Assembly (NCBI RefSeq): GCF_003334815.1
Contig: NZ_QOWO01000028.1
Reading direction: 5' to 3' (one strand)
DNA: 53,280 nucleotides
From: Escherichia coli
GTDB taxonomy: Bacteria > Pseudomonadota > Gammaproteobacteria > Enterobacterales > Enterobacteriaceae
Below are positions 6,650 to 8,474 of the stretch, in pieces; position 1 is the first letter of the stretch, and the number at the start of each line of letters is the position of its first letter. A program made the position numbers and the translations under genes. Under the pieces are notes generated by a model. It saw only the letters and a program-made list of their open reading frames with translations, ran no database searches and was not told the DNA's origin.

Positions 6650-7058
6650 TCCATGTGGGTAGTTGGGTTTCATCCTGCCATGCGCAATCGACAATGTGAA
6701 AACCCTGTGCCTGGTAAAAATTTATCGCCGGTTGATTTTTTTGATAAACCTCCAGCATCAGGTGGGGATGGCGCTGCTGCACATACTGCATCAGCGCCTT
6801 ACCAATACCGCGCCTGACGGCCTTCGGTGCGACAAACATCGCTGCCAGAAATCGGCCTTCCATAATGCTGACAAAACCGAGAAGCTTACCGTCTTCTTCC
6901 CAGACCCAGTTTTGCGCGTTGGCAAGATAGGCATCCCGCACCAGCGGAATGCAGTCACGCCAGTAATTCGCTTTTATAAAGGGATGCCCCCAGGTTGTAC
7001 TTTCCAGCCACAGTTCGAGGATCGCGGGGAGTTCTGAACGTTGCGCTTCCCGAATCAT
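6618..7058 (-). CDS. yiaC: GNAT-family N-acetyltransferase YiaC (146 aa)
   Basis: GNAT acetyl-CoA-binding motif (RRGIGKALM); 3' end overlaps the bisC 3' end convergently; start overlaps the tag stop (ATGA). Confidence 0.85.
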
Positions 7059-7618
7059 GGTTTATTTCCCGGATAGCAACAGCAGCCAACCACATGATCA
7101 TTCACCAGCCCACATGCCTGCATAAAGGAGTAACAGATTGTGGTGCCGACAAACTTAAAACCACGTTTTTTCAGTGCCTTAGATAGGGCGTCGGAGGCGG
7201 ACGTAGATGTGGGAATTTCGCTCAACGTTGTGGCTTGTGTCACCTGTGGCTGATGATTTACAAACGACCAGACAAAGTCGACAAACGGTTCGCCGTTCTG
7301 TTCCATTTGCAGGTACGCCCGCGCATTACCAATAATTGCCTGAATTTTCCCTCGATGGCGGATAATCCCGGCGTCCTGTACCAGTCTTTCGACATCCTCT
7401 TCCTGCATTGCTGCGACCTTCACCGGATCGAACTGATGAAAGCAGGCGCGATAGTTTTCGCGTTTTTTGAGGACGGTGATCCACGATAATCCAGCCTGCT
7501 GCCCTTCAAGGCAGATCATTTCGAACAGTTTTTTACTGTCAGTTTCAGGCACGCCCCACTCATTATCATGGTAGGCAATATAAAGCGGGTCCTGACTCAC
7601 CCAGCCGCAACGTTCCAT
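7055..7618 (-). CDS. tag: DNA-3-methyladenine glycosylase I (187 aa)
   Basis: Start trimmed to MERCGWVSQDPLYIAYHDNEWGVPE, the characteristic Tag N-terminus. The track ORF extends 79 codons upstream. Confidence 0.9.
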   Translation of the reverse strand: MERCGWVSQDPLYIAYHDNEWGVPETDSKKLFEMICLEGQQAGLSWITVLKKRENYRACFHQFDPVKVAAMQEEDVERLVQDAGIIRHRGKIQAIIGNARAYLQMEQNGEPFVDFVWSFVNHQPQVTQATTLSEIPTSTSASDALSKALKKRGFKFVGTTICYSFMQACGLVNDHVVGCCCYPGNKP

Positions 7619-7769
7619 ACTTTCCCTCGCTATGTACCCGATCGTAAAAATTTCAGCCGCTTTTCTTGACGCATCGGTGAAAAAGTCAATATTTAATACA
7701 GGGCTACTATGCCCGATATCCTTCATACAATGACAATAATATTGCCGAATTCGGCTCTTCCCTGGAGTC

Positions 7770-8474
7770 GTGTTAATGATCATAAAAAAAAGCGGTGGTC
7801 GCTGGCAGCTAAGCCTGCTGGCGAGCGTGGTAATCAGTGCCTTTTTTCTCAACACAGCTTACGCCTGGCAACAAGAATATATCGTTGATACGCAACCCGG
7901 ACTTTCCACAGAGCGTTACACCTGGGATAGTGATCATCAACCTGATTACAACGATATTTTGTCGCAACGTATTCAAAGTAGCCAAAGGGCGCTGGGACTG
8001 GAAGTCAATCTGGCGGAAGAAACCCCTGTGGATGTGACCAGCAGTATGAGTATGGGCTGGAATTTTCCTTTATATGAACAGGTTACAACCGGCCCGGTCG
8101 CGGCATTACATTACGATGGCACAACCACCTCGATGTATAACGAGTTTGGCGACAGTACTACCACGCTGACCGATCCGTTATGGCATGCCAGCGTGAGTAC
8201 CTTAGGCTGGCGTGTTGACTCCCGGCTTGGCGATCTCCGACCCTGGGCGCAAATCAGCTATAACCAGCAATTTGGCGAGAATATCTGGAAGGCGCAATCA
8301 GGCCTGAGCCGGATGACGGCGACAAACCAGAACGGCAACTGGCTGGATGTCACCGTAGGCGCTGATATGTTGCTCAATCAAAATATTGCCGCCTATGCCG
8401 CGCTAACTCAGGCAGAAAATACCACTAATAATAGCGACTATCTGTATACGATGGGGGTTAGCGCCAGATTTTAA
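7770..8474 (+). CDS. yhjY: YhjY, predicted outer-membrane beta-domain (autotransporter-like) protein
   Basis: N-terminal signal peptide and a C-terminal aromatic residue (terminal F) typical of OM beta-barrels; position between tag and yhjX. Confidence 0.8.
   Translation: MLMIIKKSGGRWQLSLLASVVISAFFLNTAYAWQQEYIVDTQPGLSTERYTWDSDHQPDYNDILSQRIQSSQRALGLEVNLAEETPVDVTSSMSMGWNFPLYEQVTTGPVAALHYDGTTTSMYNEFGDSTTTLTDPLWHASVSTLGWRVDSRLGDLRPWAQISYNQQFGENIWKAQSGLSRMTATNQNGNWLDVTVGADMLLNQNIAAYAALTQAENTTNNSDYLYTMGVSARF

Follow-up and report, generated by a model that had tools for sequence, protein, structure and literature searches.

What is yhjY of Escherichia coli: a complete small protein of the outer membrane (OM), or what was left of a larger one? 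The gene lies at 7776..8474 on the + strand of the window, that is, the whole 53,280-nucleotide stretch analysed here (RefSeq assembly GCF_003334815.1, contig NZ_QOWO01000028.1), an E. coli chromosomal segment in which bisC-yiaC-tag are followed by yhjY-yhjX-eptB. An earlier note, made from the letters alone, regarded its product as a stand-alone outer-membrane beta-domain with a signal peptide and a C-terminal aromatic residue and with no passenger-like domain, either a small barrel or the remnant of a larger autotransporter. yhjY itself is already annotated, and the new element is the anatomy and history of the gene. Comparisons at the level of sequence and gene order show that it descends from a type Va GDSL-lipase autotransporter of ~660 amino acids (aa), ancestrally divergent from tag. 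An internal deletion of ~400-440 codons took away nearly all of the SGNH catalytic domain, the alpha-helical linker by which the barrel is plugged and roughly strands 1-5, and it left the signal peptide and ~36 passenger residues fused, via a junction of ~22 residues, to the last ~7 strands. We regard as probable, by no means as certain, the whole account that goes with this origin, in which the deletion product has been kept by selection and is now a small 8-stranded OM barrel with a periplasmic N-terminal peptide.

The sole Pfam match in YhjY is PF03797 (Autotransporter; E=1e-11, 45.5 bits), which spans residues 90-211 and positions 119-253 of the 255 in the model. TIGR01414 of NCBIfam matches as well (21.4 bits against a curated cut-off of 16), at model positions 285-432 of 432. 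By both models, YhjY falls in the class that RefSeq names, at the level of domains, autotransporter beta-domain-containing protein. The autotransporter signal is real, yet it is restricted to the C-terminal half of the barrel models. Thus, the beta-domain that the earlier note expected a profile search to detect is there, while it is not the complete unit that "stand-alone" implied: YhjY has inherited only ~7 of the 12 strands and has lost the linker helix. Neither Lipase_GDSL nor any passenger domain of Pfam matches YhjY, and no Pfam or NCBIfam match was found to the families of OmpX/Ail, the OmpA N-domain, OmpW, PagP and NspA. When the Protein Data Bank (PDB) was searched with the single YhjY sequence, only a chance match to isoamylase appeared (E=0.84); a profile search gave the AaaA autotransporter barrel as the sole match (E=9.5e-5).

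Where, then, is the rest of the autotransporter? An exhaustive search found proteins of ~660 aa whose last ~150 residues match YhjY 89-232, such as P0135 of Winslowiella (44% identity), P0157 of Pantoea ananatis and others. They carry both Lipase_GDSL and Autotransporter Pfam domains, and match EstA, an autotransporter esterase whose structure has been solved at full length (PDB 3KVN), at E=1e-34. BLASTP of YhjY against P0135 gives two collinear matches, one between residues 57-232 and 486-665 (E=1e-40) and the other between 1-66 and 1-69 (35% identity). Profile comparison by hhalign agrees at both ends: YhjY 89-232 is aligned to 514-665 of the full-length proteins with a probability of 99.9%, and YhjY 1-66 to their residues 1-69 with a probability of 96% (E=1.3e-9), which becomes 92% without most of the signal peptide. 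In the N-terminal alignment, AWQQEYIVDTQPGLSTE--RYTWDSDHQPDYNDILSQRI of YhjY stands against AWDQLYVFGDSLSDSGNNGRYTWDGSTHPLYDDILAEKI of the full-length Winslowiella protein.

The two homologous ends and the part between them divide YhjY into three segments after the signal peptide. Residues 31-66 (7866..7973, +) are the remnant of the GDSL-lipase passenger N-terminus, supported by BLASTP, hhalign, alignment, substitution rates and a modelled helix; block I has changed there from FGDSLSD to VDTQPGL, and RYTWD...P.Y.DIL..RI is kept. The earlier remark that there is no passenger-like domain is accordingly right for Pfam domains and misses this conserved remnant of ~36 residues. Residues 67-88 (7974..8039, +) form the junction segment, for which hhalign gave no significant match to any part of the full-length family, and which holds the predicted first transmembrane strand (~73-80, LGLEVNLA) of the AlphaFold2 (AF2) model described below. 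An xLNx motif in it resembles the passenger around ~90-96; the resemblance is weak and not significant, and we do not claim it as the origin of the segment. Residues 89-232 (8040..8471, +), defined by PF03797, TIGR01414, hhalign and AF2, go back to the final ~7 of the 12 strands in the ancestral barrel (beta6-beta12) and end in TMGVSARF. From the sequence pattern of P0135 and the alignments, we infer that this ancestral barrel would have had 12 amphipathic strands at ~391-665 and that the kept part begins in or just before strand 6. What is missing can be named. Nothing in YhjY aligns with the linker region (~346-390) of full-length relatives, and barrel strands 1-5 are likewise without a counterpart. 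Blocks III (GGND, GxND) and V (DxxH) are found at ~125 and ~330 of the full-length orthologues, within the part missing from YhjY, and the sole predicted helix of YhjY (58-69) is homologous to passenger residues ~60-69, not to the linker.

Gene order connects the long and short forms. A full-length lipase autotransporter of 662-665 aa, divergent from tag and beside yiaD, is found in Winslowiella and Duffyella, both of Erwiniaceae (checked in NCBI taxonomy), and in Serratia liquefaciens; Serratia belongs to Yersiniaceae. The same tag-adjacent slot is occupied by a short gene in E. coli, Salmonella, Citrobacter, Kosakonia, Klebsiella, E. albertii, E. fergusonii and Pantoea. Because the long and short forms share one chromosomal slot, the full-length form is taken as ancestral at this locus and YhjY as its internal-deletion derivative. 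The suggestion that YhjY is the remnant of a larger autotransporter is thereby demonstrated, since full-length lipases sit in the identical slot and both of their termini match YhjY.

Comparison with longer homologues, which had been proposed as a check, did find genuine long relatives, in other families of Enterobacterales and not among the close homologues. Every close orthologue, whether from Escherichia, Salmonella, Citrobacter, Kosakonia, Enterobacter, Superficieibacter or Pseudenterobacter, is 229-235 aa long. Klebsiella, Cronobacter and Entomohabitans have short members that are more distant (209-237 aa), and a separate short family of 227-242 aa is spread across Pantoea. Longer close homologues were rejected as true long orthologues: P0001, P0004, P0019 and P0061 owe their length to frameshifts or to starts called too far upstream, and P0006 and P0067 are chimeric assemblies. 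In P0001, P0004 and P0019, an upstream open reading frame (ORF) corresponding to 7709-7888 is fused to yhjY via frameshifts, so that these proteins are artefacts of assembly or annotation.

What kind of protein did the deletion leave? The Sec signal peptide (residues 1-30; 7776..7865, +) has a basic n-region (KK..R), a hydrophobic core LSLLASVVISAFFL and a predicted signal peptidase I cleavage site between AYA and WQQ. It is supported by hydropathy, by Ala30, which is nearly invariant in the family alignment, and by its alignment with the equivalent peptide of the full-length lipase autotransporter; a lipobox Cys is absent. At the other end, TMGVSARF fits the beta-signal of outer-membrane proteins (OMPs), polar-x-G-x-x-hydrophobic-x-hydrophobic, and in the family alignment G227 and F232 are invariant and S229 and A230 nearly so. 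The signal peptide and the C-terminal aromatic residue noticed earlier, the latter being Phe232, are thus both borne out, and YhjY has the Sec signal peptide and the aromatic-ended beta-signal by which type Va autotransporters are recognized.

For the fold, AF2 was run on mature YhjY with 105 homologues (mean pLDDT, the predicted local distance difference test, 65; predicted template modelling score, pTM, 0.57), and this run superseded a first one on 31 sequences with the signal peptide included (pLDDT 52). The model, numbered here as in the precursor, is disordered at 31-57 and has a helix at 58-69 that is seen in both AF2 models, eight strands assigned by DSSP (74-79, 88-100, 103-114, 139-149, 154-166, 188-199, 205-215 and 224-231) and a small hairpin extension at 119-130. 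The first strand has a pLDDT of 50-74. One side has turns of 2-5 residues and also the C-terminus, and the opposite side has loops of 8-24 residues; this canonical OMP topology places residues 31-73 in the periplasm. For residues 31-66, the prediction is accordingly a periplasmic location and an amphipathic helix that covers ~58-69. Each predicted strand has an alternating hydrophobic face when read from the sequence, and a strand count of eight in the modelled barrel is reasonably supported.

If the parts work as their features suggest, the YhjY precursor would be exported by Sec and cleaved after AYA30, and the beta-signal TMGVSARF would direct insertion by the beta-barrel assembly machinery (BAM). 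Seven inherited strands and one junction strand would then close into a small 8-stranded OM barrel whose turns on the periplasmic side are short and whose external loops are long. The conserved N-terminal peptide WQQEY...ERYTWDSDHQPxYxDILxERI, which includes the amphipathic helix, would stay in the periplasm, where it is probably an interaction motif.

Several points weigh against this account. The YhjY model is of moderate confidence only; the small OM barrel of the earlier note is likely, as eight strands are predicted. Foldseek found no solved structure, 8-stranded barrels included, with a template modelling (TM) score above 0.46, orthologue models in AlphaFold-DB superpose on the YhjY model at TM about 0.5-0.58 only, and the homology models of YhjY in a published review are deformed or broken barrels. 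The first strand sits in the least conserved part of the mature protein. The searchable literature holds no experiment on the outer-membrane localisation, folding or phenotype of YhjY. Finally, exact deletion end-points are not mappable, as DNA similarity has been lost: when Pantoea is compared with Winslowiella, alignment is confined to the flanks and the final ~130 nt of the gene, the sequences being too diverged.

Might the inherited strands be an incomplete barrel, competent in the membrane only as a homo-oligomer or together with another protein, as trimeric autotransporters build one from 3 x 4 strands? This is the rival that survives best, and we still consider it unlikely. The pattern of strands and turns fits a self-contained even-stranded OMP, and no partner gene is conserved. 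The downstream neighbours of yhjY differ by genus, being yhjX, lpf fimbrial genes, or an ORF of no known identity followed by dnaT, and an operon partner is argued against because the neighbour is not conserved. In Salmonella (L008 5211-8705), a chaperone-usher fimbrial operon (Fimbrial, PapD, Usher) lies downstream of yhjY in place of yhjX.

Selection on yhjY can be read from the ratio of nonsynonymous to synonymous substitution rates (dN/dS). Between E. coli and E. albertii, the whole gene has a dN of 0.065 and a dS of 0.62, that is, a dN/dS of 0.10. The N-terminal remnant has 0.09, the barrel part 0.055 and the signal peptide 0.63, and the neighbouring gene tag has 0.04. Values between genera agree, with dS saturated there, and the N-terminal remnant stays at 0.06-0.09 over the comparisons. 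The junction 67-88 is the most relaxed part of mature YhjY (0.1-0.5; 0.47 between genera). The length is about 210-240 aa and the frame is intact across Escherichia, Salmonella, Citrobacter, Klebsiella, Kosakonia, Cronobacter and others. Of 5426 complete E. coli genomes, 5423 match a 1-kb query around yhjY, and in 5417 the match covers at least 80% of it. YhjY is therefore no decaying relic; it is kept at its present size under purifying selection throughout Enterobacteriaceae.

Expression of yhjY is also regulated. RybB is a small RNA (sRNA) whose synthesis depends on sigmaE. Its 5′ seed, in the sequence that we take to be that of RybB, is predicted to form a 12-bp duplex of -17.5 kcal/mol with 7788..7799 on the + strand (codons 5-8 of yhjY; AAAAGCGGUGGU / AAAAGCGGTGGT), a value reached by 0.4% of shuffles, and weaker duplexes are predicted with the same assumed sequence in four yhjY orthologues. 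This putative site fits the literature, in which TRIC-seq lists yhjY as a new RybB partner. Published work also describes yhjY as RpoS-dependent in EDL933 and as induced in O157 Sakai at the transition to stationary phase. Probably, YhjY would be made mainly in stationary phase, through RpoS, and be turned down by RybB like other OMPs. A synonymous change, S21S (codon 21, ~7836-7838), appeared in 5 of 12 rifampicin-resistant evolution lines with no measurable fitness gain (bioRxiv 10.1101/2023.01.13.524028); a mutational hotspot, standing variation and an effect on the mRNA are all possible explanations.

Is yhjY nevertheless a non-functional relic, a pseudogene that has not yet decayed? A large deletion destroyed the original function, and no phenotype has been reported. 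yhjY is interrupted by IS1 in one pig isolate (H1, NZ_CP053720.1 163082-164858), and alleles truncated to 146-176 aa are frequent in some clusters (P0064, P0082 and P0083), among which P0083 is named Shigella flexneri and, like P0082, counts as Shigella. From the interruption and the truncated alleles, yhjY is dispensable in some lineages. Against this stand the substitution rates, below 0.1 in both the N-terminal remnant and the barrel, the frame and length that are intact across many genera, the presence of the locus in nearly all complete E. coli genomes and the regulated expression, and we judge a relic very improbable. Even less credit is due to the idea that YhjY is a complete stand-alone 12-stranded beta-domain that merely lost its passenger, since both domain models are matched in their C-terminal half only, homology to the full-length relatives begins at their ~514 with nothing corresponding to the linker helix or strands 1-5, and AF2 gives eight strands, not twelve. 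That YhjY is a lipase or esterase, as the legacy database names "putative lipase" and "Lipase 1" and its nearest characterised relatives, the GDSL lipase autotransporters, would have it, can hardly be believed when another sequence stands in place of the Ser-containing GDS motif, the deleted region includes blocks III and V (GGND, DxxH) and Lipase_GDSL of Pfam does not match. As judged from the residues that it retains, YhjY cannot hydrolyse esters and cannot secrete a passenger.

Did the deletion occur once or twice? The short gene of Pantoea (L006 6001-6711; 227-242 aa) occupies the slot between yiaD-tag and an ORF of no known identity that is followed by dnaT and dnaC, and these downstream genes are those found in Winslowiella, whose full-length gene is at L002 6001-7998, and in Duffyella. 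Other genera of Erwiniaceae, the family of Pantoea, have the full-length gene at this locus, so that on the species tree the short forms of Pantoea and of Enterobacteriaceae call for two deletions, or for one and a transfer. The Pantoea form keeps only PDYNxILAEKI of the passenger, without the RYTWDSDHQ stretch, and its C-terminal homology begins at ancestral residue 499, whereas that of YhjY begins at ~514. Its family (P0158, P0173 and P0179 among others) also has a conserved pair of Cys residues, C-P/L-Q/D-C-D/E (CxxC), in a predicted long external loop between strands 3 and 4 (alignment A1, columns ~150-165). The pair, which could form a disulphide, is absent from both the Enterobacteriaceae YhjY and the full-length proteins. 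A neighbour-joining tree of the barrel part puts all the short forms together as sister to the Winslowiella protein, with bootstrap values below 50, long branches and obvious rate differences. The Pantoea short form possibly comes from an independent deletion. We offer only as a tentative proposal, rather doubtful at present, that the stem of Enterobacteriaceae and Pantoea independently cut the same 12-stranded lipase autotransporter to a near-identical architecture, that both products were kept by selection and that the passenger piece was exapted as a conserved periplasmic interaction peptide. The shared architecture would consist of the signal peptide, the first helix of the passenger (PDYNxILAExI), one recruited strand and the last seven strands. 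If true, such a parallel origin would be a natural and repeated conversion of a barrel from 12 to 8 strands.

The numbering used above depends on the start codon. An ORF without interruption runs from 7770 to 8474 on the + strand, and the product of 234 aa given earlier was counted from its GTG at 7770. The ORF is real, and this start is 6 nt too far upstream. In RefSeq, yhjY begins with ATG 7776, which gives 232 aa. A Shine-Dalgarno-like GGAG, read from the sequence at 7764..7767 (+), is 8 nt before this ATG and only 2 nt before the GTG, and orthologues begin with MIIKK or MIVKK; from both, ATG 7776 is the likely start. The coding sequence at 7776..8474 (+), of 232 codons and a stop, follows the RefSeq annotation mapped from L001, the ORF list and the orthologues of 229-235 aa. 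The annotated tag is 187 aa long (7055-7618) and leaves a divergent intergenic region of 157 bp before yhjY. The ORF list extends tag (7055-7855, -) to 266 aa from an upstream GTG, which would make it overlap yhjY. The short upstream ORF 7709-7888 (+), MPDILHTMTIILPNSALPW..., lies in another frame and overlaps the start of yhjY. A promoter and terminator scan gave chance-level matches only.

What does this history mean? In the searchable literature, YhjY figures only as an uncharacterised protein, a putative lipase or a poorly modelled OMP. We found no account there of its origin by internal deletion, and searches on b3548 or on truncated GDSL autotransporters in K-12 gave nothing relevant. 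YhjY is an uncharacterised entry in the OMP inventory of E. coli K-12, and its legacy names (putative lipase, autotransporter) point to functions that are beyond it. A better description, which corrects the annotation, is that of an internal-deletion product kept by selection, in which a conserved passenger peptide is combined with a junction strand and ~seven inherited strands. The deletion origin also explains why modelling gave "broken barrels". More generally, YhjY would be a datable natural case in which the strand number of a barrel shrank by deletion, and it would bear on the rules for BAM substrates and on models in which OMPs evolve by gaining and losing hairpins. Practical consequences are modest.

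How, finally, does YhjY compare with known systems? The GDSL-lipase (SGNH) type Va autotransporters, from which YhjY descends, are EstA of Pseudomonas aeruginosa (PDB 3KVN), ApeE of Salmonella, Lip-1 of Photorhabdus and the tag-adjacent orthologues of 662-665 aa, and the group also includes PLB and McaP. What YhjY has in common with them is the chromosomal slot (that of the tag-adjacent orthologues), the N-terminus from the signal peptide to ~40 residues into the passenger, the ~150 residues at the end of the barrel and the beta-signal. It differs in having no catalytic Ser/Asp/His or Gly/Asn blocks and in the loss of ~90% of the passenger, the linker helix and ~five strands. Two other proteins, P0196 (330 aa) and P0203 (370 aa), are also reductive derivatives of these autotransporters with a signal peptide and a membrane part. 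Unlike YhjY, with its ~seven strands and a passenger piece, they keep the linker helix and all twelve strands and have no passenger. In the neighbour-joining tree, P0196 and the full-length P0175 are sisters. From trimeric autotransporter anchors (type Vc) it is clear that a chain with fewer than 12 strands can be functional; they have 4 strands per chain and are obligate oligomers, and there is no evidence of oligomerisation or of homology to them for YhjY. With the small 8-stranded barrels (OmpX/Ail, the OmpA N-domain, OmpW, PagP and NspA), YhjY shares ~200 mature residues, a terminal Phe, and eight predicted antiparallel strands with short periplasmic turns and long external loops. If YhjY works at all, it would work like one of these, yet it has no sequence-family relation to them, its model resembles NspA and OprF only weakly (TM 0.39-0.45), and it carries a conserved N-terminal extension of ~43 residues that is predicted to lie in the periplasm.
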